Assembly (NCBI GenBank): GCA_027082775.1
Contig: JALWUI010000063.1
Span: 4,975-68,974 of the forward strand
Direction: 5' to 3'
From: Candidatus Kapaibacterium sp.
GTDB lineage: Bacteria; Bacteroidota; Ignavibacteria; Kapaibacteriales; WFXC01
Length of the DNA: 64,000 nucleotides
Shown: positions 5,816-38,014 of the stretch, piece after piece
Layout of the letters: the number at the start of each line of letters is the position of its first letter
Position numbering within the stretch: the stretch's first letter is position 1
Made by a program: the position numbers and the translations under genes
Notes under the pieces: generated by a model
The model's input: the letters and a program-made list of their open reading frames with translations, nothing else
Databases searched by the model: none
Told to the model about the DNA's origin: nothing

Positions 5816-6609
5816 GATTGATCAGCGTGCTTTTTCTTGGACTGCTCCTCTGGCTGCCGCTCAGGGCACAGGACGAAAAGATCGAAGATTTTTCCTTCGA
5901 GGATCTGCCGGAGGAAGAATTGAGCAGCTTCTATGAAATCGTTGGAGTTGGCGTCATCGGCACTGCGCAATTTCTCAACGTCGATGCCGTGCAGCAAGTG
6001 GCGGAGCAACTGTTCCCACAGTCGACTCCTGCCATCGATGCTCCACTCTACTGTGCGGGCTTTTATGTTGCTGAATCCTTTTATCCGGGCAAAAAGTTTC
6101 GATTCAGATTTTTGTATACGGCTGGCTCCCGGAAGCAGACCGGCACCGTGACCATAGGAGAGGGCATCGATACGGCGCAGGTGCAGCGGCGTCTGGAGTA
6201 TGGCATCAGTTACAATGCGCTGACGGTCGATTATGCTTTCGTGCCAGCTTCTCAGTTAGCAATCGTTGCCGGACTTCAGCTTGGATGGGGGAGCATTCGG
6301 TTTGGTGCGGCGCAGAGTCTGGAACAGCGGCGTTTTGACGAAGAATTCCAGTTCGATCGCCCCTCGATCAACAATTCGACGACGCTGGAAACCCTCCATT
6401 TCTTTACAGCGCCGCAGCTCGCGATTGAATGGTCGCCAACGGCGACAGCGCTGCTTCGCATAGCGGGAACTTACCACTTCTCCTGGACCGGGGAGTGGAA
6501 AGCAGACAATATCCAGCGTGTTGAGAACGTTCCAAAAACGCTGAATGGCGGTGGTTTCGGTGTTCAGGTTGGATTGTTCATCGGACTATTCCGAATTGGT
6601 GTGCCGTAA
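5812..6609 (+). CDS. Hypothetical outer-membrane beta-barrel-like protein
   Basis: Signal peptide (LLWLPLRAQ), alternating amphipathic segments, and an aromatic-rich C-terminus. Confidence 0.4.
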   Translation: MRLISVLFLGLLLWLPLRAQDEKIEDFSFEDLPEEELSSFYEIVGVGVIGTAQFLNVDAVQQVAEQLFPQSTPAIDAPLYCAGFYVAESFYPGKKFRFRFLYTAGSRKQTGTVTIGEGIDTAQVQRRLEYGISYNALTVDYAFVPASQLAIVAGLQLGWGSIRFGAAQSLEQRRFDEEFQFDRPSINNSTTLETLHFFTAPQLAIEWSPTATALLRIAGTYHFSWTGEWKADNIQRVENVPKTLNGGGFGVQVGLFIGLFRIGVP

Positions 6610-6616
6610 AGGAAGG

Positions 6617-6690
6617 GGGCCCTTAGCTCAAGTGGTTAGAGCAGCGGACTCATAATCCGCGGGTTGCAGGTTCGAGTCCTGCAGGGCCCA
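6617..6690 (+). tRNA. tRNA-Met (CAT anticodon); tRNA-Ile2 (lysidine) cannot be excluded
   Basis: Hand-folded cloverleaf: acceptor stem GGGCCCT/AGGGCCC, D arm GCTC..GAGC, anticodon stem GCGGA/TCCGC with loop CTCATAA, T arm GCAGG-TTCGAGT-CCTGC, discriminator A. The G1-C72 pair argues against an initiator tRNA. No CCA is encoded. Confidence 0.8.
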
Positions 6691-6744
6691 CTACCTTCCC
6701 TTTCTCCACATCCCTCATTCTCGATGACAGATGCGCTCATTTCA

Positions 6745-7135
6745 GTGTACACTTCTTGCCGGCTAAAGCCGGCGTTCCAGTTACTGGGAGCGCACACTTC
6801 AGTGTGCCTGGGAGCGCACGCTTCAGCGTGCATTCCCCTCACCCTAACCCTTTCCCAGAGGAAGAGGGGATTTCTTGCACCCGTAGGGGTGACCGGCTGG
6901 TCGTCCACCGGGCAAAGCACTGCTTCGCCCCGAGCATTGCACTGGGAGCGCACGCTTCCGTGTGCATCTTTGCCGACAAAAGTCGGTGCTCCCGGTGTTC
7001 GTACTCCCTCGCCCACAGGGAGAGAGGGAGGAGGTGGGGCCTTTGGCTGAACATCGCGCTTTCCCTTTCGCGCACTCCCATGGGGAGAGAGGCAGAAGGT
7101 GAGAGTGGGTATTTTTCATCTCTGTCACCTGGCGA
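6745..7135. repeat. Hairpin-array repeat cluster A (composite GC-rich palindromic units)
   Basis: Units such as CCGGCTAAAGCCGG, GCACGCTTCAGCGTGC, CCCCTC..GAGGGG, GCGACCGGCTGGTCGC and GGGCAAAGCACTGCTTCGCCC. It shares a ~150-nt module with cluster B. Confidence 0.7.
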
Positions 7136-7470
7136 TACAGATTTTTTTAGCACTACTTCTGTCAGTTGGGATACTTCGTTTGTCCAGTATCGGATAACTG
7201 TGAAACCTTTTGCTTCCAGAAAAGCGGTACGTTCTTCATCGTAGATTTTGTGTTGTGGCTCGGCGTGGTGACCGCCATCAATTTCGATGATGAGGCGTAA
7301 TTTCGTGGGAGTAGAAATCCACGATGTATGGACCAATTAGGATGCTGACGACGAAACTTGATTCCTAATAACTGATGGTTTCGGAGCAAATGCCATATTA
7401 AGTTTTCAGCATTACTTTGGTTCGTGCGAAGCGCACGGGCATAGGCAAGGAGCTTAGGGGGAGTTTTTCC
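7136..7470 (-). pseudogene. DUF559 (Vsr-like endonuclease domain) gene remnant, frameshifted; 3' end runs into the repeat cluster
   Basis: One frame (7162..7743) carries the N-terminal half (LLAYARALRTNQSNAENLIWHLLRNHQLLGIKFRRQHP). A second frame (6839..7336) carries the C-terminal half (LIIEIDGGHH...ERTAFLEAKGFTVIRYWTNEV). The junction lies near 7336. Confidence 0.55.
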
Positions 7471-8216
7471 CTCACCCCTAATTTCTCTCTCCAGGGGGAG
7501 CGGGAAATTTTGTCGATGGAGGTTTCGCGATAGTAGGCGGCACGCTTGGCGAACTTCTCGGGGATAGAATTGCCCGCTCGCAGGGCGTTGATCACCACGG
7601 GATCGAAGTCCACGAACCAGGACTTGAACAGTGCCTGCGCCATCGCCTCCAGCGTTTCGTTCATCCGCCGATTCAGCTCGATTTTGTCGTCCAGCGTGCC
7701 CAGAATGCGCGCAATGGCGCGTTGTTCGGGAAGGGGAGGACATCGGAACTTAAATTTTTTAATGCGATCTGGTGAAGTGTGTTTAACAGTTGTTCCAGTA
7801 GCTATTGCAAGAATTTGATGACGGTATTTTTCTGAGCACATCAAATAAAATAGAAAACGGATATCGATTATGTTTGGCTCTTTGATAACGATTTTGCCAA
7901 GCCGCTGGTTGTGAAGGTAGCGATGATTATCGCCTGAAGCTGGCACAAAAGCGGGAAGTCCCAAGATATCACCTTGTTTGCTCAAGTCCGTCATTGCGAC
8001 TATCAGGTCACCTTCTGTTAATACAAAGTCCTTTGGTACTGGCCCCTCATAATATTTCAATTTGTCATCTTTGAATCCCCCTCCAACTGCGAAGTTTCCT
8101 GGTGTAAGCAGGATATTGCCTGGTGGTTCGCTCCTGAAATATTTTCCTTTAAACGCATAGCCATGTTTGATGTCTATTACATCGCCCAGTGTTATTTCTT
8201 TCCATTCACTCCGCAT
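7398..8216 (-). CDS. hsdS: Type I restriction-modification specificity subunit HsdS (single target-recognition domain, half-size)
   Basis: One target-recognition domain followed by the conserved central HsdS helix region (LPEQRAIARILGTLDDKIELNRRMNETLEAMAQALFKSWFVDFDPV). There is no second TRD. Confidence 0.7.
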   Translation of the reverse strand: MRSEWKEITLGDVIDIKHGYAFKGKYFRSEPPGNILLTPGNFAVGGGFKDDKLKYYEGPVPKDFVLTEGDLIVAMTDLSKQGDILGLPAFVPASGDNHRYLHNQRLGKIVIKEPNIIDIRFLFYLMCSEKYRHQILAIATGTTVKHTSPDRIKKFKFRCPPLPEQRAIARILGTLDDKIELNRRMNETLEAMAQALFKSWFVDFDPVVINALRAGNSIPEKFAKRAAYYRETSIDKISRSPWREKLGVREKLPLSSLPMPVRFARTKVMLKT

Positions 8217-8264
8217 TACTCAGCACCTTCCACTTTTTAGTCAGTAACATAGCCGCGATTTTTA

Positions 8265-8753
8265 CTATCTCTCTAACACAAACCGGACCTTTTCCCGACG
8301 CAGCATTTCAAATGGAGTCATATGTCGAATTCCTAAACCGATGCAAACGTTCGGAAGTTTTACTTTCCGTCTGGTAGCTGCAGGAACTTCGTGTGTCACG
8401 AGCACGTAGTTCTGTGCCAGAGCATGTGCTACCAGGTAGTAGTCTGCTACCTGAAAGAAAGCGTTTATTGCGGCAAGATCGTAATTTTGAGTCATTACCC
8501 AACTGCTGACTTTACTGAATGCAGCGACAACCCATGTGTCAGGAGGAAGGAAAAAGTTTGCTTCACGCTGCTTTGCCCAGTCTGCCAGATCGTCATCGCC
8601 TGCGATTAACTCGTCCCTGACCTTTTCAATGCTGAAGACAAGTCCCTGAGCATTGGCAACGTCCAGCCAGTCCCAGAACGCCGGGCAAAAGTCAAAACCG
8701 TAATGGAGATTCTTTGCCTGGATGAAAACGTTCGAATCCAGTAGATACGCCAT
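8265..8753 (-). CDS. DUF4411-family PIN-like protein
   Basis: The N-terminus MAYLLDSNVFIQAKNLHYGFDFCPAFWDWL matches my recollection of the DUF4411 signature. The start ATG overlaps the stop of the upstream HTH-ImmA gene (ATGA). Confidence 0.6.
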   Translation of the reverse strand: MAYLLDSNVFIQAKNLHYGFDFCPAFWDWLDVANAQGLVFSIEKVRDELIAGDDDLADWAKQREANFFLPPDTWVVAAFSKVSSWVMTQNYDLAAINAFFQVADYYLVAHALAQNYVLVTHEVPAATRRKVKLPNVCIGLGIRHMTPFEMLRREKVRFVLER

Positions 8754-9904
8754 TATCCGATTCCCAGCTCTTGCGCGAATTTCTTGAGGGTTTGAGTCTT
8801 CAGAATGCCTAACATCGTATAAGCGTCCCGAAATAGCGTCTGTCCTTCCAGCGTACTGCTGACCAATGCCAGAGCAAAACGCTTGCTGACTTTGCGAGCG
8901 AGATTATAGTAGAAGTTCCCACCTTTGTTTCCAGCTAATGTCTGCTTATAGCTTTTTACCCGCTTTTGCTCCTCTTCATACACTTGCCGGTAGGCTTCCC
9001 GGCTCAGGAGCTCTGCGTCGAACAACCGTCTGAGAATCACCAGTGTGCTGACCTTGAATATGCGAGCCAGGCGTTGCAATTCCTGTCGTAAGTCATTTTT
9101 GGTGTTGAAATTTTCTACTAATGTAGTGATGGGCACCAGCAGCTCTGCTGCTACCTGGTTGCACCAGCGTTCCACGGTTTCTTCCGGATATCTCTCAAGA
9201 CTGGCATCCGATATTCCCGATTTGCCCAGCCAGATATGCGCCAGTTCGTGAGCCAGCGTGAAGGTTTTACCGGCAATAGTGTCAGCTCCATTGATAAAAA
9301 TCACCGGTGCTAAGGCGTCTACCAGAGCGAAACCGCGGAACTCTTCCGGATCCAGAGGGCGATGGGTATTGTTCCCCACCACACCATTCATCATTACCAG
9401 AATACCAGCCTCTTCTACCCGATCGATAAAGTAACTGAGCGCTTGCGTCCAGGTGGGAATGGCACGCCGTTTCTCAATCTCCAGATTGATCCGATCGCGG
9501 ATGGTAGCTGCGATGACACTTGCGTCGTCCGCTACGGTCGCTGACCCGACAAACGGCAGCGGTGTTGCTCCTTGAGCCAGCAGGTAATCGCGATACCACT
9601 CTTGCCGTTGCTGGCAAATATAAATGGTTTCCAGCAGCTCCGGGCTGGGGCGGGAAAGTCTTGCCTGAGGCATGGTACGAAAGTCCGGGATGGGCAATGG
9701 TTCCTCCGGTGGCGCTTCCAGGAAGAAAAAACCCAGCGGTACTCGAAAGGTTTTTGCCAGCCGCTCCAGTTGTTTCAAGGTCGGTTGACTTTTCCCGCTT
9801 TCCCATTCCTCATATCGTGGAAATGTTTTCGTGAGCGCATCTATCGTACCCTCAGCACGTTCTCTGGCCCATCGGAGGAGTTCCGGTTTAATGGTGACCC
9901 GCAT
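8753..9904 (-). CDS. XRE-family HTH fused to an ImmA/IrrE-family (COG2856) zinc metallopeptidase
   Basis: N-terminal HTH region (TLKQLERLAKTFRVPLGFFF); HEXXH motif within TLAHELAHIWLGKSGISD. Confidence 0.75.
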   Translation of the reverse strand: MRVTIKPELLRWARERAEGTIDALTKTFPRYEEWESGKSQPTLKQLERLAKTFRVPLGFFFLEAPPEEPLPIPDFRTMPQARLSRPSPELLETIYICQQRQEWYRDYLLAQGATPLPFVGSATVADDASVIAATIRDRINLEIEKRRAIPTWTQALSYFIDRVEEAGILVMMNGVVGNNTHRPLDPEEFRGFALVDALAPVIFINGADTIAGKTFTLAHELAHIWLGKSGISDASLERYPEETVERWCNQVAAELLVPITTLVENFNTKNDLRQELQRLARIFKVSTLVILRRLFDAELLSREAYRQVYEEEQKRVKSYKQTLAGNKGGNFYYNLARKVSKRFALALVSSTLEGQTLFRDAYTMLGILKTQTLKKFAQELGIG

Positions 9905-9989
9905 AGCACTTTTGCTGTTCTTTGTTTCCCATCTCCAATAGATCTGTGTCTTGATTCAGCTACACGCTTCGCCGGGAAGCTGCTGACTC

Positions 9990-10073
9990 GCTTGGCACAT
10001 AAGCGTTATTCAACGAACGTTTAATAACGCGCTGGCTTATTCAACGAAAAGGGCGTTTCGTTTAATAAGATGG
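9990..10073. promoter_or_regulatory. Direct-repeat element upstream of the HTH-ImmA gene (candidate operator)
   Basis: Two copies of TTATTCAACGAA...CGTTTAATAA lie 36 bp apart in the hsdM-ImmA intergenic region. Confidence 0.3.
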
Positions 10074-11627
10074 CTATTTCCCATACCCCAACACCTGTAG
10101 GTTCTTGCGAATTTCTGCTTCCAGCCGGCGACTTTCTTCGAACTGCTCATAGAGCTGTGCGGTCAACGCTGCCATCTTCTGCTCGAAGGGGACATCGTCG
10201 TCTTCTTTTTCCTCCACACCCACGTAACGTCCTGGCGTAAGGACGTAATCGTGTTTGCGGATGTCCTCGATGGTAGCTGACTTCCACCAGCCGGGTTTGT
10301 CTTCGTAACCCTTACCTCGCTTCCAGGCGTGGTACACGTCGGCGATCTGGCGGATTTCCTCCTGCGTGAGTTCCCGGTGCGTGCGGTCGACCAGCCGTCC
10401 CATTCGGCGGGCGTCGATGAAGAGCGTCTCGCCGGTGCGGTCGCGCCAGCCGCGCCTCGGATTGCTTTTCTTGGTGCGGGTAATGAACCAGAGGCAGGCG
10501 GGGATCGGCGTGGTGTAGAAGAGTTGCCCCGGCAGGGCAACGATACACTCTATCAAATCATCTTCGATGATTCCTTTGCAGATGGCAAATTCTGCTTTGG
10601 TGGAAGTGGATAGCGAACCATTCGCCATCACAAAGCCGGCTGTGCCGTTCGGAGCCAGGTGGTAGATGAAATGCTGGATCCAGGCGTAGTTCGCATTGCC
10701 CGCCGGTGGAACCCCGTACTTCCATCGAGGATCTTCCCGCAGCCGCTCACCGCCCCAATGACTCATATTGAACGGTGGATTGGCGAGAATGTAGTCGGCT
10801 CTGAGGTCTTTGTGCAGGTCGTTCAGGAAAGTGTCTGCCGGGTGTGGACCAAGATCTGCCTCGATGCGGCGAATTGCCAGATTCATTTTTGCCAGTCGCC
10901 AGGTGGTCGGGTTGGATTCCTGCCCATAAATAGCAATGTCACCAAGTTTGCCGCCGTGCGCTTCTACAAAGCGTTCTGACTGGATGAACATCCCGCCGGA
11001 GCCGCAACAGGGGTCATAGACTCTTCCCCGATAGGGCTCGATCATTTCGACCAGCAACTGCACCACACACTGAGGCGTATAGAACTCGCCTCCACCTTTG
11101 CCTTCAGCAGCCGCGAATCGACCTAAGAAGTACTCGTACACCCGTCCCAGTGGATCTTTGACTCCATACTCGCGGGCACGCAGGTCGATGTCCCCCACCA
11201 GCTTGACCAGCTCTCCCAGCCGGATTTTGTCCAGCGTTGGACGAGCGTAATTTTTAGGTAGCACGCCTTTGAGTGGCGGGTTTTCACGTTCGATCGCTTC
11301 CATTGCCTGATCAATTACCTGCCCAATCTCAGGTTGTGGCGCAGCCGCCTGAATTCGGTCCCAGCGTGCCTCTGGCGGTACCCAGAATACATTTGCCGCC
11401 AGATATTCGTCGCGGTCCTCTGGATCAGCATATTCCGTCTCTTGCAGTGCTTTCAGTTCCTCGTATTTCTTCTGAAACGCATCGGAGATGTACTTCAGAA
11501 AGATCAGCCCCAGCACCGTATGTTTGTACTCGGCTGCGTCCATATGGCCCCGCAATCGGTCAGCCATTTCCCAGAGTTTCTTTTCAAACCCCAAAGTTGC
11601 TCCGTTGGTCTGGATATCACTCATCAT
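10074..11627 (-). CDS. hsdM: Type I restriction-modification N6-adenine DNA methyltransferase subunit HsdM
   Basis: HsdM N-terminal domain, AdoMet motif DPCCGSGGM, and catalytic motif NPPFN. Confidence 0.9.
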
Positions 11628-11794
11628 CGATCCTCCGATGGGTTTTGTTCAGATTCAGTGTTCCCCAATTCGATTGCGTAAACAGTAAATCCACGATGCA
11701 GTGAGAAAAGCATTGCTTGTATGCTGAAAAGCTGCTGGGGTGAGCGTTCATCTGAAGAAAGGAAGACTTCCAGCAGGGAAGTTGCCCGTTTGCC

Positions 11795-12035
11795 GGGGGC
11801 GCACGCTTCAGCGTACATTCCCCTCACCCTAACCCTTTCCCAGAGGAAGAGGGGATTTCTTGCACCCGTAGGGGCGACCGGCTGGTCGCTCACCGGGCGA
11901 AGCACCACTTCGCCCCTACCATTGCACCGGGAGCGCACACTTCAGTGTGCACTTCCGATCCTTCTGCCGGCGAAAGCCGGCGCTTCCAGTTGTTGCCAGC
12001 AAGAGCTGGCGCTTTTCGCGCTTTTTCGTTGTAGA
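11795..12035. repeat. Hairpin-array repeat cluster B
   Basis: Positions 11796-11945 are about 93% identical to 6810-6960 of cluster A in the same orientation. Additional hairpins: GCACACTTCAGTGTGC, CCGGCGAAAGCCGG. Confidence 0.7.
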
Positions 12036-12094
12036 GGAGAGCACGGGCTGGGTGCGGGGGAGTTCGCCGCTGGTGATTCGGGCGGTTACCTGCC

Positions 12095-12811
12095 TTACTC
12101 TGACTGTTCCTGCTGGAACCGGAGATAATCGATGGTTGCTCGGACGTGGGCGAAGATGCTGCGCCACATTGCGTCGGTGAGGCGTCCGGTGAGGGTGTTC
12201 TGCTGGCTCGGATGGTAGGAGCCGATGAGGTAGTACGTGTCGAGTTGTACCGTTGCCCCGTGGTGGAACCGGGGTTTCGGTCTGGGAATGGGAACGTCGA
12301 AGGAGCGGAGCAGCTGCAGGCTGGTTTCCCACGCTATGCCGCCTAAGGCAAGAAGAACGCGGACGTTGGGTAGCAGTGAGAACTCTGCCCGGAGATACTC
12401 GAAACAGTTCTGGCGTTCTTCGCGCGTCGGCAGGTTGTTGGGGGGTACACACCGGACCGCGGCAGTGATGTAGCAATTGCTGAGCGTCAGCCCATCGTCG
12501 CGGGAAATGGATTCCGGCTGGGAGGCAAAGCCGTATTCGAAGAGGGCGCGGTAGAGCCACTCTCCACTTCGGTCGCCGGTGAACATTCTGCCTGTCCGGT
12601 TTGCACCGTGGGCGCCGGGCGCTAAGCCGACAATGAGGAGCATTGCATTGGGATCACCAAAGCCGGGAACAGGCTTGCCCCAGTACTCCCAGTCCTGATA
12701 CTTGCGCCGCTTGACCGTTGCAACCTGCTGCCGCCATTGTACTAAGCGTGGGCATTTTGTGCACGCTACCAGTGAGGCATTGAGCGCTTCGAGCGAAATG
12801 AATTTTTTCAT
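12095..12811 (-). CDS. Uracil-DNA glycosylase superfamily protein (family 4/5-like, Fe-S type)
   Basis: CTKCPRL Fe-S cysteine motif and GLAPGAHGANRTGRMFTGD active-site region. Confidence 0.8.
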   Translation of the reverse strand: MKKFISLEALNASLVACTKCPRLVQWRQQVATVKRRKYQDWEYWGKPVPGFGDPNAMLLIVGLAPGAHGANRTGRMFTGDRSGEWLYRALFEYGFASQPESISRDDGLTLSNCYITAAVRCVPPNNLPTREERQNCFEYLRAEFSLLPNVRVLLALGGIAWETSLQLLRSFDVPIPRPKPRFHHGATVQLDTYYLIGSYHPSQQNTLTGRLTDAMWRSIFAHVRATIDYLRFQQEQSE

Positions 12812-13887
12812 TGTTGTCCCTTTGCGTTGCGGATGATGGCAATGATTGCTTCGATGAGCACACCTTCAGCATTTTCCCCCGACCGCTTAATGCGGGCATC
12901 AGCCTGATACAGGATGTCCAGTGCCTGTACAATTGCTTTCAGAGGGAATTGCTGGAGAGCGGCAAGGTATTCGGGGATGAAAAATGCGTTGATCCCGGTG
13001 ATTTTGCTCAATTCCTGCGTGTTCCGTTTCCGAAGCTGCGCAAGTTTCAGAAGAACAGTAAAGTAGCGGGTGAGCATTGTCAGGATGATTAGTGACTGAC
13101 GCTGAACGGTTAAAAGGTGCTTGAGTATCCGGAGCGCTCGCGGCAAATCCGCCTTACCGATTGCTGTCTGAAGATCAAAGATAGTATGCTCACGTGCAAA
13201 TCCTGCCAGCGCGGCAACATCCTCAGCGGTGATCTTCGGACGATCGCCCACGTAGAGAACGAGCTTTTCAATTTCGTTGTGGACTGCATAGAGCGAATCG
13301 CCGGCATACTGGATCAGCAATTCCAGAGCGTCGGGGTCGATGGATTTGCCGTGCTGCCGGATGCGCTCCCCTGCCCACGACGGGATTTCCCGGTCATACA
13401 GTTTCGGATGCTCGATCCACAAATGGCGTTCTAACAACAACGGGAAGGGAAACGGTGCTTTCCGCAGTTTCTTCTCCACCGTTGCCTGATGCCGCGGTTT
13501 GTTGAGCTGCCGGCTGATGCCGTCCAGGGTGGGGAGAGAAGCAACGAAGACCAGCGTGTTTTCCGGGATCGGGCGTTCTAAGAGTTGACGCAACAGGGTT
13601 CCCTCTTTGCGCTTCTCCAGCTTTGCCAGCCGTTCGGCGCGACGTAAAATAAGCAGCCGCCGGCTGCCCAAAAGAGGATAAGCCATCATCCGGCTGAGCA
13701 GTTGCTCCGGCGGAAGCTCTTCACAGTTCAGGAATTCCACCTGCTGCGACGTAACACCCCGTCGGTAGGCTTCCTGCAGCAATTGCTGGAGCGTTTCTTC
13801 CACCAGCAACCGTTCTTCGCCAAAGATGAGCAGCACAGGCGGCAACTGCTTTGCCTTTCGTAAAGCCGCGATCGTGACTGGTTTCAT
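12808..13887 (-). CDS. holA: DNA polymerase III subunit delta
   Basis: HolA-like overall architecture and length. Its stop overlaps the udg start by 4 bp. Confidence 0.7.
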   Translation of the reverse strand: MKPVTIAALRKAKQLPPVLLIFGEERLLVEETLQQLLQEAYRRGVTSQQVEFLNCEELPPEQLLSRMMAYPLLGSRRLLILRRAERLAKLEKRKEGTLLRQLLERPIPENTLVFVASLPTLDGISRQLNKPRHQATVEKKLRKAPFPFPLLLERHLWIEHPKLYDREIPSWAGERIRQHGKSIDPDALELLIQYAGDSLYAVHNEIEKLVLYVGDRPKITAEDVAALAGFAREHTIFDLQTAIGKADLPRALRILKHLLTVQRQSLIILTMLTRYFTVLLKLAQLRKRNTQELSKITGINAFFIPEYLAALQQFPLKAIVQALDILYQADARIKRSGENAEGVLIEAIIAIIRNAKGQQ

Positions 13888-13936
13888 TCCTGTTGCTTCA
13901 AATACTTGCGCTGTACCCTTAAAAACGAACGTTTCA

Positions 13937-15001
13937 TTACTCCCGCCGCATTAAGGTTCGAGGATCGAGCGCATCGCGCAAGCCATCGCCGAGCAGATTA
14001 AAGGCAATGACCGCCAGCGCGATGGCAATGCTGGGGAAGACGGTCAGTTCCCAGTTCACCCCAGCAGCGATGTACCCATACCCATCCCGGATCATCTGTC
14101 CCCACGACGGCGTGGGCGGCTGCACCCCTAAGCCGAGGAAGCTCAATCCTGCTTCCGCGATAATCGCATTGGCAAAGCCGGCGGTCATAATGACCGTCAG
14201 CGGACCCAGGGTATTGGGCAGAATGTGGCGCAGGATGATCCGCCGCGTGGGATAGCCCAGCGCGCGGGTTGCTTCCACAAATTCCGCTTCGCGCAGAGAA
14301 AGGAACTGCCCCCGAACAATGCGGGCAATGTCGACCCACGTGGAAATCCCAATAGCAACAAAGGTTTGCCAGAATCCCTGTCCTAAGACAACAGAGAAGG
14401 CGATAACCAACAGAATGGTTGGAAACGACCACACGACATTGATCAGCCACATAATGAGGTCATCGATCCAGCTCAGGAAGTATCCTGCCAGCGCTCCCAG
14501 AAGGATTCCGATGCTCAGCGCAATGCCCTGAGAAATCAAGCCCACTGAGAGACTGATGCGAGCGCCGTAGACCAGGCGACTGAAAACATCCCGTCCATAC
14601 CGGTCTGTCCCCAGCAGAAAGAGCGGTTGCCGATGCCAGTCGGAAGGATCATCACCCCACAGTTGCTGAATTGCAATGCGGTGGCGTCTGCCGTCGATGT
14701 CCGTGTAAACAACGGTGTCGCCACGTACTTCGTAGTGCTGGATAGGAATCAGCAACGGCTCATCTGGATGGGCAGGATTGCGTTTTAGCAGGAGATTGCC
14801 GCGAAAGAAAGCCGGTTTGATCGCATATTCCAGGATTTGCACGTGCGGCGGAAATGGGGCGATAAAGTCTGCGAAAATTGCCGTCAGGGTCAGCAGACTG
14901 ATAATGCTCAGTCCCACCATTGCAGCAATACTCTGCCGCAACCGCCGCCACGTTTGCTGCCACAATCCTCCGTGTCGATCGCTATATGCTTCGCGATTCA
15001 T
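13937..15001 (-). CDS. ABC transporter permease (OppC/DppC-like)
   Basis: Multiple transmembrane segments and the binding-protein-dependent transport EAA-like motif. Confidence 0.8.
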   Translation of the reverse strand: MNREAYSDRHGGLWQQTWRRLRQSIAAMVGLSIISLLTLTAIFADFIAPFPPHVQILEYAIKPAFFRGNLLLKRNPAHPDEPLLIPIQHYEVRGDTVVYTDIDGRRHRIAIQQLWGDDPSDWHRQPLFLLGTDRYGRDVFSRLVYGARISLSVGLISQGIALSIGILLGALAGYFLSWIDDLIMWLINVVWSFPTILLVIAFSVVLGQGFWQTFVAIGISTWVDIARIVRGQFLSLREAEFVEATRALGYPTRRIILRHILPNTLGPLTVIMTAGFANAIIAEAGLSFLGLGVQPPTPSWGQMIRDGYGYIAAGVNWELTVFPSIAIALAVIAFNLLGDGLRDALDPRTLMRRE

Positions 15002-15013
15002 CTCAATGCACCG

Positions 15014-15940
15014 CTATGACAGTTTGATTTTCGGATCCAGGAAAGCATAGATAATGTCGACCAGTAAGTTGATAATCACGAACACGACAGCGGTAAAGAG
15101 CACAACTCCTTGAATCACGGGATAATCCAGCTTTTCAATGGCGTTAATGGCGACCGTGCCAATGCCGGGCCAATTGAAGATGTACTCGATAAAGAAGGTT
15201 CCGGCAAGCAGGGCAGCGAACCAGGCACTGACGGTGGTGACCACCGGATTGAGGGCATTGCGCAGAGCGTGCTTGAAGAGCACCGCTGATTGGGGTAAGC
15301 CCTTTGCTTTCGCCGTACGAATGTACTCCTGATGGAGGACTTCCAGCATACTACTTCGGGTAAGGCGGGCGATGATGGACAGCGGGCGAACACCCAGGGT
15401 GATCATCGGCAAAAGTAAATACTCCCATCCCCGGTTGATGTAGCCAGAAATGGGTAACCACTGGAGCAGAACGCCGAACAGTAAGGCGAACAGCAATCCG
15501 GTGACAAAGGAAGGTAATGAAATGCCCAGTAGGGCAGTAGTCATAATGGTGGTGTCAAACCAGGTATTTGCCCGCAGGGCAGAGAAGATGCCCAGAAGAA
15601 TACCCAGAATGGATGCAAGAGTAATAGCGCTGACTGCCAGCAGTGCCGTTGCCGGAATCCGTTCCGCGATTGTTTCAACGACGTCACGATTGGTCGCAAA
15701 CGAGCGTCCCAGATCGCCGTGTAGCACTCGCCAGAGATAGTTCACGTACTGTTCGTACAGCGGGCGATCCAGTCCTAACTGTTTGCGGAGTGCTTCAACC
15801 GATGCAATATCAGCGCGCTGTCCCAGCAATAGCCGGGCAGGATCGCCAGGAAGAACGTAGTTGATGAAGAAAGTAATGGTCAGAACACCGTAGAGCACCA
15901 GCACTGAATACAGCAATTTTCGGATAATGTACGCTGCCAT
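15014..15940 (-). CDS. ABC transporter permease (OppB/DppB-like)
   Basis: Typical OppB N-terminus (MAAYIIRKLLYSVLVLYGVLTITF) and transmembrane profile. Confidence 0.8.
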   Translation of the reverse strand: MAAYIIRKLLYSVLVLYGVLTITFFINYVLPGDPARLLLGQRADIASVEALRKQLGLDRPLYEQYVNYLWRVLHGDLGRSFATNRDVVETIAERIPATALLAVSAITLASILGILLGIFSALRANTWFDTTIMTTALLGISLPSFVTGLLFALLFGVLLQWLPISGYINRGWEYLLLPMITLGVRPLSIIARLTRSSMLEVLHQEYIRTAKAKGLPQSAVLFKHALRNALNPVVTTVSAWFAALLAGTFFIEYIFNWPGIGTVAINAIEKLDYPVIQGVVLFTAVVFVIINLLVDIIYAFLDPKIKLS

Positions 15941-15943
15941 TGG

Positions 15944-16870
15944 CTACACAATCACCAGCAATTTCATTGGAATTTCCCCAGCTTCTGCAAAAGCCTTAAG
16001 ACGTTCAATCATCGATGGTGTTAGCGGTTCATTGCTGCCGACAATGAGCAAACCGTAAGAAGTATAGCAATTCTCTGCCAGTTGCATTCCGGGTTGCAGT
16101 TGTGCCACGCTCAGCCGCCGGATGACCTTTTGTCCCAGTTTCCGGCGCTCTTCTTCAATGAGAGCAATGAATGTATCAACGACTTTTTCGCTGAAGATGC
16201 TGCCCGCCTTCGATTGCAGGTACTGCAATGCCTGCTCCGATCGCTGGCGGGTATAGTCCAGCAGAGATTGCGTTGAAAAGTATGGAGTCGACGATTTGGC
16301 AACTTCGGTCCGATCTCTCGATTGTTTGTACACCGCATTGTGATAGACGTCGACAACCCCAATGATCAGTGCTGCTGGGTGAATGAGCCTGCCGGACAAC
16401 CCCTGAGGAAAGCCACTGCCGTCCAGCCGTTCGTGATGGTGTAAGACCGCCGTGGCAATTTCGGCAAATCCCTTGTGGCGCGAAAGAATCCGATGTCCCA
16501 GCACCGGATGGGATCGATAGAGCGCTAACTCCTGATCCGTCATCGATCGGGTTGATTTGCCAATGATTCGGTCTGGTAAGCCGATCTTTCCAATGTCGTG
16601 GAGATAGCCAGCGATGCGGGTGATAAAAACCTCCTCTGCATTAAGCCCCAGACGTTCCGCTACCTGCGCGGATTTTTCGCCGACAAAAACGGAGTGGCTG
16701 GTGGTGTAAAAACGTTCGTGCGCCCCAACGATCGATTGCAGCATCTCAATGGTTTGCTGGAAAGCTTCGACCAACTGTCTTTCAAGGCTGGAGGACATTG
16801 GACAGTGCTGTTTGAAGGTTGGACTCAACTCGCAAAGAATCGATGGAGTGTCCCAAAAAGCGTTCGGCAA
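15944..16870 (-). CDS. HD-GYP domain protein (putative c-di-GMP phosphodiesterase)
   Basis: Motifs GYLHDIGK and HHERLDGSGFP. The 5' end overlaps the murI 3' end, so the true start is probably the internal Met near 16798. Confidence 0.7.
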   Translation of the reverse strand: MPNAFWDTPSILCELSPTFKQHCPMSSSLERQLVEAFQQTIEMLQSIVGAHERFYTTSHSVFVGEKSAQVAERLGLNAEEVFITRIAGYLHDIGKIGLPDRIIGKSTRSMTDQELALYRSHPVLGHRILSRHKGFAEIATAVLHHHERLDGSGFPQGLSGRLIHPAALIIGVVDVYHNAVYKQSRDRTEVAKSSTPYFSTQSLLDYTRQRSEQALQYLQSKAGSIFSEKVVDTFIALIEEERRKLGQKVIRRLSVAQLQPGMQLAENCYTSYGLLIVGSNEPLTPSMIERLKAFAEAGEIPMKLLVIV

Positions 16871-17615
16871 TGGCAGGAAATTGACGGGGAAGATCAGTCA
16901 CGATGACGTGGAGCTCTCCGGAGCGCTGCGGTTGCGGAGGTTGCGAAGCAACGGTGCGAGCCAGGGCAGAGGCAGCCGCCGCTCCGGAATTGATGATATG
17001 CATTCCCGGCAGAACACGCCGGATCACCGCTGTGAGCAAGGGGAAGTGGGTACAACCTAAGATCACTGTGTCAGCATCGGAAGAAACAAAACGTTCCAAA
17101 TACAGACGCGCTGCCTGGTAGGCGATCGGATGCTCTGCCAGTCCTTCTTCGGCTAAGGGAACAAAAAGGGGGCACGGCACGCTGAGCGTGCGAATGGTGG
17201 GATCGTATTCCACCAGACTATGCTCATACGCCCGGTTTTCAACCGTTGCATACGTCCCGGTAATAAGTACCGTCTTTGTCTGCGTTTGCTGCGCTGCTTG
17301 CTGCGCTGCTGGATCGATCACATCGAATACCGGGATGGAGAGATGCTGCCGAAGAAAGGGAGCAGCGACGGCGGAAGCGGTATTGCAAGCGATCAGCAGG
17401 GCTGTTACGTCGTAGTGTTCCAGCAGGTACGTTACACCCTCGATGGTGTAGCGGAGGATGGTGTCGTTCGACTTGGTACCGTACGGCAATCGGGCGGTAT
17501 CGCCCAGGTAGATAATGGTAGCGGTGGGCAGCAGCCGCTCCAGTTCCCGGACAGCAGTCAGTCCGCCAATACCAGAATCGAAGACGCCAATTGTGATTGC
17601 TGAGCCTTGGTTCAT
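16782..17615 (-). CDS. murI: Glutamate racemase
   Basis: Motifs VFDSGIGGLTV and ...ACNTAS...; start assigned to MNQGSAITIGVFDSGIGG. Confidence 0.85.
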   Translation of the reverse strand: MNQGSAITIGVFDSGIGGLTAVRELERLLPTATIIYLGDTARLPYGTKSNDTILRYTIEGVTYLLEHYDVTALLIACNTASAVAAPFLRQHLSIPVFDVIDPAAQQAAQQTQTKTVLITGTYATVENRAYEHSLVEYDPTIRTLSVPCPLFVPLAEEGLAEHPIAYQAARLYLERFVSSDADTVILGCTHFPLLTAVIRRVLPGMHIINSGAAAASALARTVASQPPQPQRSGELHVIVTDLPRQFPAIAERFLGHSIDSLRVESNLQTALSNVLQP

Positions 17616-17681
17616 TGTCGAAAGTATGCTAAATTTGCTGAAATCAAAAGTCAAATATACAGTGAAACAGCCAGCTATCCA

Positions 17682-19046
17682 ATGATGACGCAGCAACGCC
17701 GGGATGGAGGAAATTTTTTTGTCGCTATCGCTCTTGCTTTATTGCCAGTGCTGATCGCTCCTGTATGGGCGCAGCCGGACGATACGGTGTATGTGCAGAC
17801 CAACAAGCCGCAGCCTACCTTTTCACGGTACTATCACTGGAAGCAGGCTGCGTATTTGTGGACGGTCAGTGGGAGCGGCGTTTTTGGTACGATCGTTGGA
17901 GGTATTGAACTCACCGCCGATGCCCGGTTCTCGCTGGTCAGTTTCGCAGGCTTACCGCAATATCCGAAATTGCCACTGGAGGATAACGGATGGCAGGGAC
18001 AGGCTTTTTGTAGTATTACTCCTGCTGCCTGTCGGATCTTTTTTGCAACCAACGCGCGAGTTGACCGGAACTTTACCCTCGAAGATATGCAACTGGACGT
18101 TGCAGATTCGATGAAAAAGTATCGATTTATTCCGGAAAATGACACGTACAATCCCCAGCATGTGTACACGCGCACTGTCTATGGGAACGACGTCAAAGCG
18201 CAATTTCTGTACATCGATCGGTATGGCGAGGCAAATAACCAGTACTACTTTGACAATACGGCTGTATTTCGAGTGGTAATTCAGCGCAAGTCGCCTGAAC
18301 TGCTGGTAATCCAGCCCAATCCCTATCGCATTTTGAACGATGGTCCACCAAATACGATTCCCAACACCGTTTTTCGAGAAGAAGTACTCAACTTTGGCCA
18401 GGCGCCCGTTGGGGGCGGAGCAACGATTCAATTTCGCCGGATTTTGAAAAATCGAGGATTGGAATCATTGCGGATTCGTCAGATTGTGGTAGCCGGGACA
18501 AACATCGCCGACTTTGCGGTGCAGCGAACCGATGGTGCGCCGCTGACGCAAACCACTGATTTGCAACAGTGGCAGGATTCGGTAGAGTTGGTGTTCCAAT
18601 TTCAACCAACCAGCGTGGGAGCAAAACAGGCAGAGGTGCTGGTTTTCTGTAATGATCCCACGCAAAATCCCGGCGCTGGAGAAACCTACTTCCGCTTTCT
18701 GTTGCAGGGTGAAGGGGTCCAGGCGCAATTGTCGGTGCTGCCGGAAATCGACTTTGGAGATGTGTGGGTTGGACAGCAAAAAGACACGACGCTGGTCATT
18801 ACCAATATTGGTAACACGGCAGCGACCCTATTGCAGTATACCGGTGTTGCTGATCCATTCTTTCTGACCGACCCGGTGGATACGAATCAACCGCCGCAGC
18901 CGCCGGCAGCGCTGGATCCGGGACGGTCGGATTCCCTGCGCATCGTTTCCGCCCAGCGCAGAAAGGACGAGTGCGGGATACGCTGCGAATTGCTGCAACC
19001 AATACCTCGCCGTATTCGGTGGTGCTGCGAGGACGGGGATTGCTGA
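17682..19046 (+). CDS. Secreted protein with repeated Ig-like (DUF1573/choice-of-anchor-like) units; probably the N-terminal portion of a larger gene that continues in the next ORF
   Basis: Signal peptide MMTQQRRDGGNFFVAIALALLPVLIAPVWAQ and repeated DFGxV..G...tl.I.N.G motifs. It overlaps the next ORF by 76 nt in a different frame. Confidence 0.5.
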   Translation: MMTQQRRDGGNFFVAIALALLPVLIAPVWAQPDDTVYVQTNKPQPTFSRYYHWKQAAYLWTVSGSGVFGTIVGGIELTADARFSLVSFAGLPQYPKLPLEDNGWQGQAFCSITPAACRIFFATNARVDRNFTLEDMQLDVADSMKKYRFIPENDTYNPQHVYTRTVYGNDVKAQFLYIDRYGEANNQYYFDNTAVFRVVIQRKSPELLVIQPNPYRILNDGPPNTIPNTVFREEVLNFGQAPVGGGATIQFRRILKNRGLESLRIRQIVVAGTNIADFAVQRTDGAPLTQTTDLQQWQDSVELVFQFQPTSVGAKQAEVLVFCNDPTQNPGAGETYFRFLLQGEGVQAQLSVLPEIDFGDVWVGQQKDTTLVITNIGNTAATLLQYTGVADPFFLTDPVDTNQPPQPPAALDPGRSDSLRIVSAQRRKDECGIRCELLQPIPRRIRWCCEDGDC

Positions 19047-21277
19047 GTGCTGCGAAAATCTGGTATCGCTGGCAGTTTGCAGATTCCCTGCGGGATACGA
19101 TCGATTTTGGTCAGGTATCGGAAGGAGAGCAACGAATCCGGGCTTTTACCATTCGGAATCTGGGGAATGTCCGCCTGACGATCCCGGAAAAAGTGGTGCC
19201 GTATTACGAAGTGGTGGACATTATCCCCGGCTCCAAAGATGAGTTTGTGGAATTGTTTCAGTTAGGCTGCGATACCTGTTTTATCGATACCCTGACGCCG
19301 TATTACGATAAGCAGTTCGCTTTTCTGTACGACGGAACGCTGACGTTCCCGATTGGCAAAAAGGCGGTGCGATTACGCCTGAGCGTGCGACAGCAGGATG
19401 ATATTAGTAAGATAGTCGCCCAAAAAGAGTTTGTGCTGATCGCCGAAAAAATTCCCGTGCGGCTCAGCGTTGCTCCAGCGGAGCAGGATTTTGACTCCGT
19501 ATACATCCATCGAACCTCGCCACCGAAGCTGCTGCGGTTGATGAATATTTCGAAGCAGCACGCCATCTGGATTGATACGATTCTGTTTATCGGTGGAAGT
19601 GTTGCCGGCGAGTTTCGGATTGCCAGTGGCGATTATCAAATTCAACTGGCACCGGAGGATTCGCTCGGATTGCCCGTGGTCTACCAGCCAGCAGATCGAG
19701 GGTGGGACACAGTGCGGTTGATTGTCCGCTACCATTCGGTGATCAACGGAAACCGCCGGGATGATTCGGTAACGGCGATCCTGCGAGGAATTGGGGTGGA
19801 ACAGCGGTTGCTGCTGGAAGCAGCCGTTAGCGGCGGCATTCCCCCGGAACCCTTCGAGGTACGGCGAGGGTTAGCCGTTGATACGATTGACGTAGGAGCG
19901 GTGCGGGTTGGCAGAAGTCAGAGTATTCTGGCATTTGTTCGCAATCTGGGCAATCTTGTCGTCCATCCTGCTCAGACCTTTTTCTATGTGCTGGAAGAGC
20001 TGACACCCAATGCCCTGCTTCACTATCAGGTGGTCTCGCCGCACGATTCGAGCCTGGCGATTGGGCAGCGCGATACAGTGCATTTGCTGTTTCAACCGAA
20101 AAGTCCAGGGCAGCACGCTGTACGCTATGTGCTTTCCAGCAATGTTCCTGATCGCATTGGAACAGCACCCGATTCAATTCGCCAGTGGAGTTTTGTAGTG
20201 GTAGGGCGGGGAATTCGCCCTGAAGTTATGTGGAGTCAGCAGGCAGTGGATTTCGGTGATGTTGTTGTTCTGCAAAACTGTCCTGATGGGATTGTGGAGC
20301 GCTCGGTCCGGCTGACCAACGCTGGAGATGCTCCGGTTCTCATTGTTGCTGCAGTCATTGTGCCCAATTCAGGCGTCTTCACTTTGCAGGGAATGTACGT
20401 TGGAAAGACGGTCGAACCGGGAGAGTACCTTGATTTCCCGATCCGGTTTGCGCCTCCGTCGGTTGGAACGTTTACCGCAGAGCTGGTGGTACATACCGAC
20501 GAAGCGTTTCCGTACAAAGAATACCGCATTCAACTGGAAGGGCGGGGCATTGCACCGCCTGTTGTCCCAATGCAGTTGCCAGCATTGATCCGCGTTCGCC
20601 CCGGACGACCCATAGCGCTGCCCATACGGTGGGCGACGCAGTCCTATGGCGACTTGCTGCTGCAAATTGATACGGTCGAATTTGCTTTGCGCTACAATAA
20701 AACCCTGCTGGAGTATCAGCGGTTTGAAGTTTTAGGCACCGCAGCAGAAAATGCAACGGTCGATGCACAGCAGACCCGGCTTCCCGGTGATCCCCAGGCA
20801 GTACTTGCTGTCCGGATTGCACAGCCAGATCCGCTGTTGTTGCGAGACACCCTGATCGTGCTGTGGTTCGATACCTTTTTGGGAACGCAGGCGTCGACAG
20901 AAGTGACACTCAATGACACGCGGGTTGTCGTGGATGAATGTGAAGGGGTTGTGGAGTTGCTGGCAGAAGGAGGCGCGGTGACCTTGGACTCACTCTGTGG
21001 ACTGGAGCAAAAGCTGGCACCGGTCGGGGCTTACCGTTTTCGGCTGCAAGCGGGACAGCATAATGGCACGTGGTCGGTCGAGTATGAAATTCCGTTCGAT
21101 ATTACGGTACAACTCGAACTCTTTACGCTCAATGGCATCAGGGTGTGGGAGTATCGCCAGTGGCATTCGTGGGCAGGACGGTATGTGGTTCCACTGCCAT
21201 CGGTGCCGCCGGGTGTGTACCTGTGTCAAATGAAAGCGGGAATTTTTTCTAAGACAGTGCTGCTGTGGAGGAGATAG
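18971..21277 (+). CDS. Large secreted protein with T9SS C-terminal sorting-domain-like tail
   Basis: Repeated DFGxV...I.N.G motifs and a C-terminus (VPPGVYLCQMKAGIFSKTVLLWRR) resembling the T9SS C-terminal domain (CTD). The start is GTG. Confidence 0.5.
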   Translation: MRDTLRIAATNTSPYSVVLRGRGLLSAAKIWYRWQFADSLRDTIDFGQVSEGEQRIRAFTIRNLGNVRLTIPEKVVPYYEVVDIIPGSKDEFVELFQLGCDTCFIDTLTPYYDKQFAFLYDGTLTFPIGKKAVRLRLSVRQQDDISKIVAQKEFVLIAEKIPVRLSVAPAEQDFDSVYIHRTSPPKLLRLMNISKQHAIWIDTILFIGGSVAGEFRIASGDYQIQLAPEDSLGLPVVYQPADRGWDTVRLIVRYHSVINGNRRDDSVTAILRGIGVEQRLLLEAAVSGGIPPEPFEVRRGLAVDTIDVGAVRVGRSQSILAFVRNLGNLVVHPAQTFFYVLEELTPNALLHYQVVSPHDSSLAIGQRDTVHLLFQPKSPGQHAVRYVLSSNVPDRIGTAPDSIRQWSFVVVGRGIRPEVMWSQQAVDFGDVVVLQNCPDGIVERSVRLTNAGDAPVLIVAAVIVPNSGVFTLQGMYVGKTVEPGEYLDFPIRFAPPSVGTFTAELVVHTDEAFPYKEYRIQLEGRGIAPPVVPMQLPALIRVRPGRPIALPIRWATQSYGDLLLQIDTVEFALRYNKTLLEYQRFEVLGTAAENATVDAQQTRLPGDPQAVLAVRIAQPDPLLLRDTLIVLWFDTFLGTQASTEVTLNDTRVVVDECEGVVELLAEGGAVTLDSLCGLEQKLAPVGAYRFRLQAGQHNGTWSVEYEIPFDITVQLELFTLNGIRVWEYRQWHSWAGRYVVPLPSVPPGVYLCQMKAGIFSKTVLLWRR

Positions 21278-34162: not shown

Positions 34163-34455
34163 CCGGCGGGTTTTCGTTGGTAGAAAAGTTTCGCACGTCA
34201 CTCACGGGAAACACGCATTGCAGCCCGCATTTAGCGGGAGCGCACGCTTCAGTGTGCATTCACTGGGAACGTACCCTTTAGGGTGCAAAGATGCCGGCTA
34301 AAGCCGGTGCTCCCAGTGTGTGTGTATTCAACCATCCTCACAACATCCCATCCGTAGGGGCGACCCGGCTGGTCGCCCACTTTCTACATCCGCAGGAACT
34401 CTCGATAGCTCATCGGGCGAAGCACCGCTTCGCCCCTACCATTGCGCGCAACTAC
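34163..34455. repeat. Hairpin-array repeat cluster D
   Basis: Positions 34163-34292 are about 95% identical to 37396-37525 of cluster E in the same orientation. Also contains a 22-nt direct repeat CAAGCGTGCAACG..TCGCAGA, two copies between 34050 and 34145. Confidence 0.7.
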
Positions 34456-34490
34456 ACCCAATGGTTCGAGGAGGTACACCGCAAGTTGGA

Positions 34491-37265: not shown

Positions 37266-37308
37266 CGATGATCTCCTTTGTTGTGCTCACAAACAAATCT
37301 TGCAGTAC

Positions 37309-37372
37309 TACAAATTTACGCCGCCCGTTGCTTCAATGCAATAGCATTTTTTCCAAAATGTCACTGGAAGAA
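37309..37372 (-). promoter_or_regulatory. Conserved upstream motif plus Bacteroidetes-type -33/-7 promoter (copy 1) for the HAF-metzincin gene
   Basis: Gene-sense sequence ...CCAGTGACATTTTGGAAAAAATGCTATTGCATTGAAGCAACGGGCGGCGTAAATTTG. TTG and TAAATTTG (TAnnTTTG) are spaced 20 nt apart; the upstream block recurs at 58760 and 51710. Confidence 0.5.
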
Positions 37373-37395
37373 GTTCCTTTTAGCGACATATGCCG

Positions 37396-37925
37396 CCAAT
37401 CGCTACTGGGTCTCCATCGGTGAAAGAATCTTTCGGCACGTCACTCGCGGGAAACACGCATTTCAGCCCGCATTTAGCGGGAGCGCACGCTTCAGCGTGC
37501 ATTCACTGGGAACGTACCTTTAGGGTGCATTTACTGGGAACGCACCCTTTAGGGTGCATTCTTGCCGGCTAAAGCCGGCGCTCCCGGTAAGGCACTCCCT
37601 GTTACTGGGAGCGCACCCTTTAGGGTGCATTCTTGCCGGCTGAAGCCGGTGCTCCCAGTGGGGTTTACTGGGGGCATACGCTTCAGCGTACGTTGCCCTC
37701 ACCCTACCCCTTTCCCAGAGGAAGAGGAAATTTCCTGTATCTGTAGGGGCGACCGGCTGGTCGCCCATCGGGCGAAACATTGCTTCGCCCCTACATATCA
37801 CGCTGGGAGCGCACCCTTTAGGGTGCATGCCGACTGAAGTCGGCGCTCCTGGGTGGGTTGCGACAGGGGAGCGCACGCTTCAGCGTACACCATCTGTGGT
37901 AGGACAACCCTCCGGGTTGTGCAAG
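37396..37925. repeat. Hairpin-array repeat cluster E (largest)
   Basis: Units GCACGCTTCAGCGTGC, GCACCCTTTAGGGTGC (several copies), CCGGCTAAAGCCGG, CCGACTGAAGTCGG, GCGACCGGCTGGTCGC, GGGCGAAACATTGCTTCGCCC and GGACAACCCTCCGGGTTGT. Confidence 0.75.
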
Positions 37926-38014
37926 CTAAGCCAGCGGTTTGCTCTACTATTTATATCCTGTCGTCGAAAGCTGGTGCTCCGGTTTACTCTTCTTCCTGAG
38001 CACAGAAACTCCGA

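Follow-up and report, generated by a model that had tools for sequence, protein, structure and literature searches.

A 64,000-nt stretch of the Candidatus Kapaibacterium sp. genome assembly GCA_027082775.1 (contig JALWUI010000063.1, positions 4,975 to 68,974 of the forward strand; the whole stretch is called the window here, and position 1 is its first letter) contains, between a tRNA-Met gene and udg, an islet with part of a type I restriction-modification (RM) system. Starting from the tRNA, it comprises a pseudogene for a DUF559 domain, a truncated hsdS, a DUF4411 gene, a gene for an ImmA-like helix-turn-helix (HTH) protein and hsdM (Table 1), a gene content that an initial annotation had read from the letters and that Pfam, ARAGORN and Rfam bear out. 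The hairpin arrays described on both sides are likewise present as runs of short hairpins. Sample and metagenome-assembled genome (MAG) names suggest a source habitat that we take to be deep-sea hydrothermal vent deposits. The hsdM product matches the PADLOC MTase_I model at E = 2e-223, at least two frameshifts interrupt the DUF559 pseudogene in three-frame translation, and the ImmA-like gene shares a 1-base overlap with the DUF4411 gene downstream, as in a two-gene operon. G+C content is 42-49% over hsdS-DUF4411 as against ~53-60% in the flanks. No HsdR-type protein (HSDR_N, ResIII, T1RH-like_C) was found among the 29 open reading frames (ORFs) scanned in the window, a set that includes all islet ORFs and all ORFs above ~900 aa but not several known flank genes and smaller ORFs; an hsdR copy could lie elsewhere in the same genome. 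Pfam likewise detected no integrase or transposase in the islet ORFs, and there is none in the full cassette of the relatives described below. Over 6000-13000 the tRNA is the sole accepted Rfam match; a sub-threshold match to the Plastid-ycf2 5'UTR family, antisense to the tRNA at 6617-6691 (41.3 bits against a gathering threshold of 65.7), is almost certainly spurious. Promoter and terminator scans did no better than on shuffled sequence. A terminator-like site lies at 12008-12022 in the right array, and the left array region (6750-7000) folds at -62.8 kcal/mol (z = -5.7).

Table 1. Features of the islet and its flanks in window coordinates.
Feature	Position	Strand	Evidence or composition	Remark
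tRNA-Met (anticodon CAT)	6617-6691	+	ARAGORN; Rfam tRNA 71.9 bits	left anchor of the variable spacer, conserved
tRNA trailer	6692-6750	+	BLAST, L009 11153-17902 vs window 6750-1	common to all alleles
Left hairpin array	6757-6995	+	E 6757-6780, A" 6786-6808, left direct repeat, E 6971-6995	
Left composite repeat copy	6810-6966	+	A 6810-6832, B 6836-6873, C 6881-6906, D 6909-6940, A 6944-6966	
Two inverted B-type modules (B')	~7004-7040, ~7073-7110	-	judged by eye	below the automatic module thresholds
DUF559 (Vsr-like endonuclease domain) pseudogene	~7142-7452	-	PF04480 positions 3-40 and 51-103 in two different ORFs	
Truncated hsdS	7398-8216	-	Pfam Methylase_S, one domain	single target-recognition domain
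B-type module	7458-7500	+		~25 nt past the hsdS truncation junction (~7523/7524)
DUF4411 protein	8265-8753	-	Pfam PF14367, E = 4e-55	putative toxin partner of the ImmA-like protein
HTH_3 + Peptidase_M78 protein (ImmA/IrrE-type), 383 aa	8753-9904	-	Pfam; PADLOC RmrA, best E = 5e-19	RmrA-like
hsdM, type I N6-adenine methyltransferase subunit	10074-11627	-	Pfam HsdM_N + N6_Mtase (PF12161, PF02384), E = 1e-106	frame intact
hsdM upstream region	11628-11771	-		right edge of cassette DNA common with the full-cassette lineage
Right composite repeat copy	11795-11951	+	A-B-C-D-A	
E module (11965-11989), then E-like hairpin with T-run	11965-12030	+		also in window-like and empty alleles
udg and 3' end of holA	12004-13100	-		flank tract nearer the full-cassette lineage
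udg	12095-12811	-		right flank gene
holA	12808-13887	-		right flank, beyond udg

The block between tRNA-Met and udg is a true presence, absence and size polymorphism among close relatives, all of them Candidatus Kapaibacterium MAGs with flanks 92-96% identical; locus L014 was found by an HsdM scan, and UDG variants of the same cluster at 90% led to 20 more loci. The spacer, measured between the 3' end of tRNA-Met and the udg stop codon, is 342 nt long in L104-L107 and 494 nt in L009 and L010; it reaches 5,403 nt in the window and 9,689-9,900 nt in L014 and L094-L096. The islet first proposed from the letters is thus real, and the search for empty sites found them in L009/L010 and L104-L107, with full ones in L014 and L094-L096. 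The long alleles run hsdM, ImmA-like gene, DUF4411 gene, hsdS (468 or 485 aa), a 212-aa ORF and hsdR; hsdS is full length in L014 and L096, and HsdR, at 1,069-1,076 aa, has all the domains expected by Pfam and PADLOC (hsdR lies at 15455-18685 in L014). The short alleles contain hairpin modules only, in the order u-A'-E-E* in L104 and u-A"-E-F-C-D-A"-E-E* in L009, where u stands for a unique stretch of ~125 nt and E* for an E-like hairpin that has a T-run, and the other letters are defined below. The tRNA-Met gene is 100% identical across all alleles and stands beside a 265-aa gene even in distant relatives, and four sister-lineage contigs span tRNA-Met, the cassette and udg without a break. 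Contigs of the more distant relatives GCA_054037375.1 and DRR461309, in which tRNA-Met keeps its left neighbor and udg lies elsewhere, do not polarize the indel, and the module maps do not allow the events to be put in exact order, since none of the alleles sampled directly precedes or derives from that of the window.

Set beside the long alleles, the window block reads as a decaying, restriction-minus, truncated derivative of a complete type I RM cassette. Nucleotide similarity to the L014 cassette extends over 8270-11771 at 96.7% (L014 9856-13360) and over 7496-7724 at 95%, and the two HsdM proteins share 97% amino acid identity. The window HsdS is 96% identical to the 468-aa HsdS of L096 over residues 1-231 (nt 7524-8216), where the match ends; those residues hold the first target-recognition domain (TRD1) and the central conserved region, the last 41 codons are drawn from repeat and DUF559-upstream DNA, and the PADLOC Specificity_I match covers only the first half of the profiles. 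In place of the second half of hsdS, the 212-aa ORF and hsdR stand the B-type module at 7458-7500, the DUF559 pseudogene and the two inverted B-type modules, a replacement segment with no counterpart in any sampled relative; DUF559 is absent from the full-cassette alleles. With hsdR, the 212-aa ORF and the latter half of hsdS missing, this copy has lost restriction. The half-HsdS with an intact hsdM could at most methylate as a dimer. From this gene content we infer a residual methylase or toxin-antitoxin activity, and the putative addictive or defensive activity of the ImmA-DUF4411 pair, whose genes are both intact, may explain the retention of the remnant.

The same genes vary in other ways among the alleles. 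TRD1 of the L014 hsdS (13387-13908) is unrelated to that of L096 (hsdS 14551-15957) and of the window (7725-8216), and the central conserved region is 96% identical, which amounts to a recognition-domain swap within one lineage between L014 and L096. In some full-cassette alleles the ImmA-like and DUF4411 genes form one ORF of 547-558 aa (L014 11692-13368; L094 12863-14506), which could be a true fusion or an assembly difference; they are separate, with a 1-base overlap, in the window and in L096. At L009 8953-10004 (GCA_026996895.1) holA is split into ORFs of 142 and 223 aa, and over window positions 13370-13670 identity falls to 83%; either the gene is locally disrupted in this MAG or the MAG is misassembled here. 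The inverted B-type pair lies just downstream of the DUF559 pseudogene, and the placement of the pseudogene between inverted B-type modules (7004-7500) resembles the terminal inverted repeats of a small element; part of the DUF559 sequence has a 69% nucleotide match beside hsdM in a Desulfobulbaceae MAG (L022 2832-3107).

The direct repeats that flank the islet had been put at about 93% identity over about 150 nt (6810-6960 against 11796-11945), and alignment gives a similar figure, 92% over 157 nt (6810-6966 against 11795-11951), gapless, in direct orientation and with 13 mismatches. Identity is uneven along the pair, reaching 97% in the A-B half (2 of 68 positions differ) and 88% in the C-D-A half (11 of 89), a gap that is marginal (p = 0.04). 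Whether the pair is more alike than dispersed copies of the family has a divided answer, given here with three full composites open to comparison. The two A-B halves are indeed closer to each other than to any other copy in the window or L014 (at most 88%), whereas the C-D-A halves are not: from 11863 on, the right copy has its orthologue in the single copy of the empty allele L009, which it matches at 92%, above its identity to the left copy. Such a pattern is that of a mosaic rather than of a fresh duplication.

The repeats are composed of G+C-rich hairpins of 23-38 nt, for which the module names A, A', A", B, C, D, E and F were assigned in this analysis. A, A' and A" consist of the tag GGGAGCGC and a hairpin with a varying stem, and E is an A-type hairpin reversed; an A-E pair folds as one long hairpin, much like the doublet of repetitive extragenic palindromes (REPs) known as a REPIN. 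B is CCCTCACCCTAACCC...GAGGGG. C, in every copy seen, is GTAG followed by the 8-bp-stem palindrome GGGCGACC-GGCT-GGTCGCCC. The tag of the A and E modules is not GTAG, and B, D and F fall outside the definition of a tagged palindrome. By inspection, the stems of A, A', A" and E (for example in the arrays at 34236-34445 and 37479-37886) differ by paired changes, GCACGC/GCGTGC, GCACCC/GGGTGC and GCCGGC/GCCGGC, and the four look like a single hairpin type.

In the window, 50 module hits fall into eight intergenic clusters, or about one array per 8 kb. With a looser A-module pattern, 10 further contigs of a JGI metagenome proved to have arrays, none of them with the A-B-C-D-A composite, and scans for the composite repeat in genome contigs (B..C pattern) and metagenome contigs (C-D pattern) gave no match in collections that do not hold the window's genome. 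Modules are entirely missing from 1.2 Mb of loci from other lineages (distant relatives, and loci of other phyla with the same cassette), and the possibility that the arrays travel between phyla with the cassette was rejected on this ground. To our knowledge, a hairpin-module family of this kind has not been described for this phylum. Among relatives at 93-96% identity the family is hypervariable. The empty alleles of L009 and L104 differ by one 152-nt block, E-F-C-D-A" (L009 10821-11026), set between a duplicated A-E pair, and arrays appear to grow and shrink by whole composite units between these genomes, which are ~96.6% identical. The initial annotation also held that the family brackets other accessory genes; its recurrence in the window stands, but the bracketing of accessory genes does not where it can be tested. 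Arrays at ~43.0 and ~48.1 kb enclose a 4.8-kb two-gene block that the full-cassette lineage shares, colinear and at 89-90% identity, with arrays of other module content at the same two intergenic positions. Since these arrays bracket a conserved block, bracketing alone is not diagnostic of an islet.

The boundaries of the indel can be placed by comparison with the empty allele of L009. Homology stops at 6750 and resumes at 11863, which makes 6751-11862 the extra DNA of the window; L009 in turn has 213 nt without a counterpart there. The left edge lies 60 nt before the left repeat and the right edge at the B|C boundary inside the right repeat. An empty allele with a single whole repeat copy, as the initial annotation had suggested looking for, was not recovered: no empty allele has the whole 157-nt unit, L009 having only the C-D-A half and L104 neither half. 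In the full-cassette lineage the cassette is flanked by another composite, A'-E-E-A-B of ~190 nt (judged by eye) with A-B halves 90% alike, and it sits on the opposite side of the C-D-A-E modules from its place in the window.

Flank trees built from 8 kb of the right flank and 2.3 kb of the left flank, with outgroups, have the topology ((window,(L009,L104)),(L014,L094,L096)). At four-fold sites the window differs from L014 by 17.5% in the distal flanks (255/1457), by 8.8% in udg and holA (27/308, p = 8e-5), and by 5.4% over the DUF4411 gene, the ImmA-like gene and the conserved region of hsdS (16/296, p = 1e-8), with 1 of 72 sites differing in the DUF4411 gene alone. The corresponding udg and holA values against the empty lineages are 14.6% and 17.0%. 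Over the 1,097 nt at 12004-13100 there are 26-27 differences to L014 and L096 as against 72 to L009 and 61 to L104, and over 15000-21000 the order is reversed, with 462 differences to the full-cassette lineage as against 318 and 305 to the empty lineages. In the left flank, four-fold sites of the 265-aa gene differ by 28.5% from L014 and by 8.4% from L009. Because divergence from the full-cassette lineage is lower in them than in the distal flanks, the islet and ~1 kb of udg-side flank share a more recent history with that lineage than does the rest of the window. All the way to the tRNA the left flank is like that of the empty lineages, and the junction on this side, whether crossover or deletion, must therefore lie in the array and DUF559 segment. 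The local discordance beside the islet points to exchange by homologous recombination. HsdM relatives with 75-89% amino acid identity are encoded in other phyla as well, among them Verrucomicrobia, Nitrospirae, Delta- and Gammaproteobacteria and Deinococcota, all as MAGs, and two of these relatives also have an ImmA-DUF4411 insert between hsdM and hsdS. This distribution, like the low G+C over hsdS-DUF4411, speaks for horizontal spread of the cassette.

Taken together, we think it likely that the islet is a decaying cassette without its restriction subunit, polymorphic within a spacer of arrays akin to REPs and bacterial interspersed mosaic elements (BIMEs), and moved by homologous recombination. 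The cassette would have been gained, exchanged, trimmed and lost in this way, with crossovers both in the flanking core genes (the udg/holA side being the one seen) and in array units, and the presumed direction of transfer would be from the full-cassette lineage to that of the window. Array units would act as portable homology; of the four rearrangement junctions, three (6750, 7496-7523 and 11863) fall at modules or close to them, the exception being the right edge of the cassette at 11771, where the nearest module is ~24 nt away. Recombination probably uses the repeats as substrates, but none of the alleles is exactly what a crossover between the two 157-nt repeats would produce. That missing product counts against this explanation, as does the lack of an empty allele with the whole composite. 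So do the left junction segment at 6967-7523 (E, two B', DUF559, B"), for which the sampled relatives offer no counterpart, and the left-copy C-D-A segment, which rests on one assembly. Finally, the four-fold divergence of hsdM from L014, 15.5%, does not differ significantly from that of the distal flanks. The idea that the whole block came in one recent import from a donor like L014 or L096 was rejected on account of this genome-average divergence of hsdM, and because hsdM is ordinary in this respect, the exchanged tract would itself be a mosaic.

Several other accounts deserve consideration. One is a classical tRNA-targeting island, which a tyrosine recombinase would have integrated and for which the repeats would be attL and attR. 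Adjacency to a tRNA gene, direct repeats at both ends and lower G+C in part of the block are all features of tRNA-linked islands, and the initial annotation had described the repeats as an att-like duplication. Yet Pfam scans show no tyrosine or serine recombinase in the block or in the full cassette, the repeats and the tRNA share no sequence, and even with up to 3 mismatches allowed the window has a single copy of the 23-nt tRNA 3' end. The repeats are moreover dispersed and not conserved between lineages, and the indel edges do not coincide with the repeat edges. The island account is therefore hardly credible, and the att-like reading is not supported; the 157-nt repeats are better regarded as local copies of a dispersed, clade-specific hairpin family. 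A mis-join of the tRNA side and the RM side within the repeats during assembly is scarcely more plausible. The segment 6886-7076 (left-copy C-D-A, E and the first B') is spanned by the window's own assembly only, and same-strain short metagenome contigs, found by exact-protein look-ups, break inside the arrays (L003 ends at 6885, L001 at 7077). However, independent contigs confirm the continuity from the 265-aa gene through the tRNA into the array and, in L001 and L002, from udg through the array and hsdM to hsdS and DUF559; L003, coming from the tRNA side, matches the left copy at 100% and the right copy at 95%; and in the sister lineage the passage from tRNA to udg is unbroken on four contigs.

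More serious, though still unlikely, is a purely vertical history in which an ancestral cassette was deleted once in the ancestor of the empty lineages and truncated in the window, the repeats being bystanders. The cassette-bearing lineages are the two deepest branches on the flank tree, so that one loss is parsimonious, the divergence of hsdM equals the genome average, and arrays occur about every 8 kb, two of them around a conserved block. What vertical descent does not readily accommodate is the two- to three-fold lower divergence of udg, holA and the ImmA-DUF4411 pair from the full-cassette lineage relative to the distal flanks, the closer affinity of the window at udg to that lineage than to its own sisters, the close match of the two A-B halves, and the position of the cassette on opposite sides of C-D-A-E, for which extra rearrangements would be needed. 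In the mode of RM mobility that the Kobayashi group described as long target duplication, the spacer would already have had one A-B-C-D-A unit, which was duplicated to both sides as the cassette entered. Furuta et al. (PMC2853133) distinguish three classes of direct repeats at RM genes, arising from site-specific recombination, from long target duplication, or from chance insertion between repeated sequences. The islet lacks the marks of the first; it agrees with the second in its sizes (repeats >30 bp, insert <20 kb) and in the absence of further mobility genes, but lacks the single-copy target. The C-D-A of the right copy does align to one L009 copy, and the full-cassette lineage too has long flanking repeats; in that mode, R and M both lie inside the insert, as they do in the full-cassette alleles, while the window has M only. 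On the other hand, A-B is missing from all empty alleles and none has the whole unit, the C-D-A halves resemble each other less than the right one resembles its L009 orthologue and so are not recently duplicated, the repeat occurs at other sites too, and ~560 nt of unrelated material separate the left copy from cassette DNA. The islet is thus nearer the third class, except that its repeats probably take part in recombination, and target duplication is improbable here. About as doubtful is that machinery specific to the modules, REP/RAYT-like (RAYT, REP-associated tyrosine transposase) or other, cuts and joins at module boundaries and makes the arrays landing pads for defense cassettes. If this were true, arrays would capture, duplicate around, trim and release such cassettes, which would explain the same cassette at two module boundaries, 140 nt apart, in two lineages, as well as the clustering of most junctions at or beside modules and the whole-module differences between arrays at 95% identity.

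The islet can be placed among known systems, and it adds to known kinds a cassette-like RM polymorphism in a hotspot of REP/BIME-type arrays. It shares with type I RM the canonical HsdM and HsdS and, in the relatives, the HsdR domains, and, as MAGs of other phyla also show, hsdM and hsdS are separated by the genes of an ImmA/IrrE-type HTH-peptidase and its partner; it differs in that the window copy lacks hsdR and has hsdS cut after the central conserved region, and therefore cannot restrict. RosmerTA, a toxin-antitoxin defense type of which the ImmA-DUF4411 pair would be a putative relative, pairs a Zn-peptidase antitoxin, RmrA, with a toxin of unknown function (Millman et al., preprint 10.1101/2022.05.11.491447). 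The 383-aa window protein matches PADLOC RmrA models, combines HTH and M78 domains and has a small overlapping gene downstream, but its DUF4411 partner matches no PADLOC model, and the pair is nested in an RM operon. Recombination in flanking DNA is an accepted route for the exchange of RM systems (PMC2853133), and the polymorphism here is of that kind in having one site that is full, partial or empty, long direct repeats and no mobility gene; it departs from it in having repeats that vary by lineage and come from a dispersed hairpin family, and no clean single-copy target was found. REP, BIME and REPIN sequences are extragenic palindromes with a GTAG or CGTC tag that form mosaic arrays and inverted REP doublets (PMC3733652, PMC3116915). 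The modules resemble these in being short, G+C-rich extragenic hairpins present in many copies and mosaic arrays, with C tagged by GTAG and A-E REPIN-like; they differ in that A and E have another tag, that B, D and F are no simple tagged palindromes and that the named modules within one array all point in the same direction. No RAYT (IS200/IS605-type Y1) transposase was found among the ORFs scanned in the 64-kb window.

These observations have implications beyond the locus. A single chromosomal site in an uncultured lineage presents a natural series of empty, full and decayed states, and with it the life cycle of a defense cassette, including the decay of a restriction system to a methylase and toxin-antitoxin remnant. 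Genome scans should take note that, where REP-type arrays are abundant, similar repeats beside a tRNA gene are no proof of site-specific integration, and that relatives decide the matter. Further, the hairpin-array family may serve as a strain marker and is a candidate for the study of REP-type elements outside Proteobacteria.

Elsewhere in the window, a TPR gene is present twice, at 38013-39452 and 51805-53226, the copies being 74-76% identical. In the full-cassette lineage (L118 7838-12821) a 934-aa HAF-repeat protein, sorted by the type IX secretion system, is encoded between the TPR gene and a 979-aa gene; the corresponding site is empty in the window (34475-39614), and a 68%-identical homologue lies ~14 kb away beside the second TPR copy (51398-53468). 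Tandem coding repeats of 138 nt (46 codons) occur inside a 462-aa ORF (43549-44937), with related units in a 924-aa HAF-like protein (36424-37178; families D1, D2 and D11).

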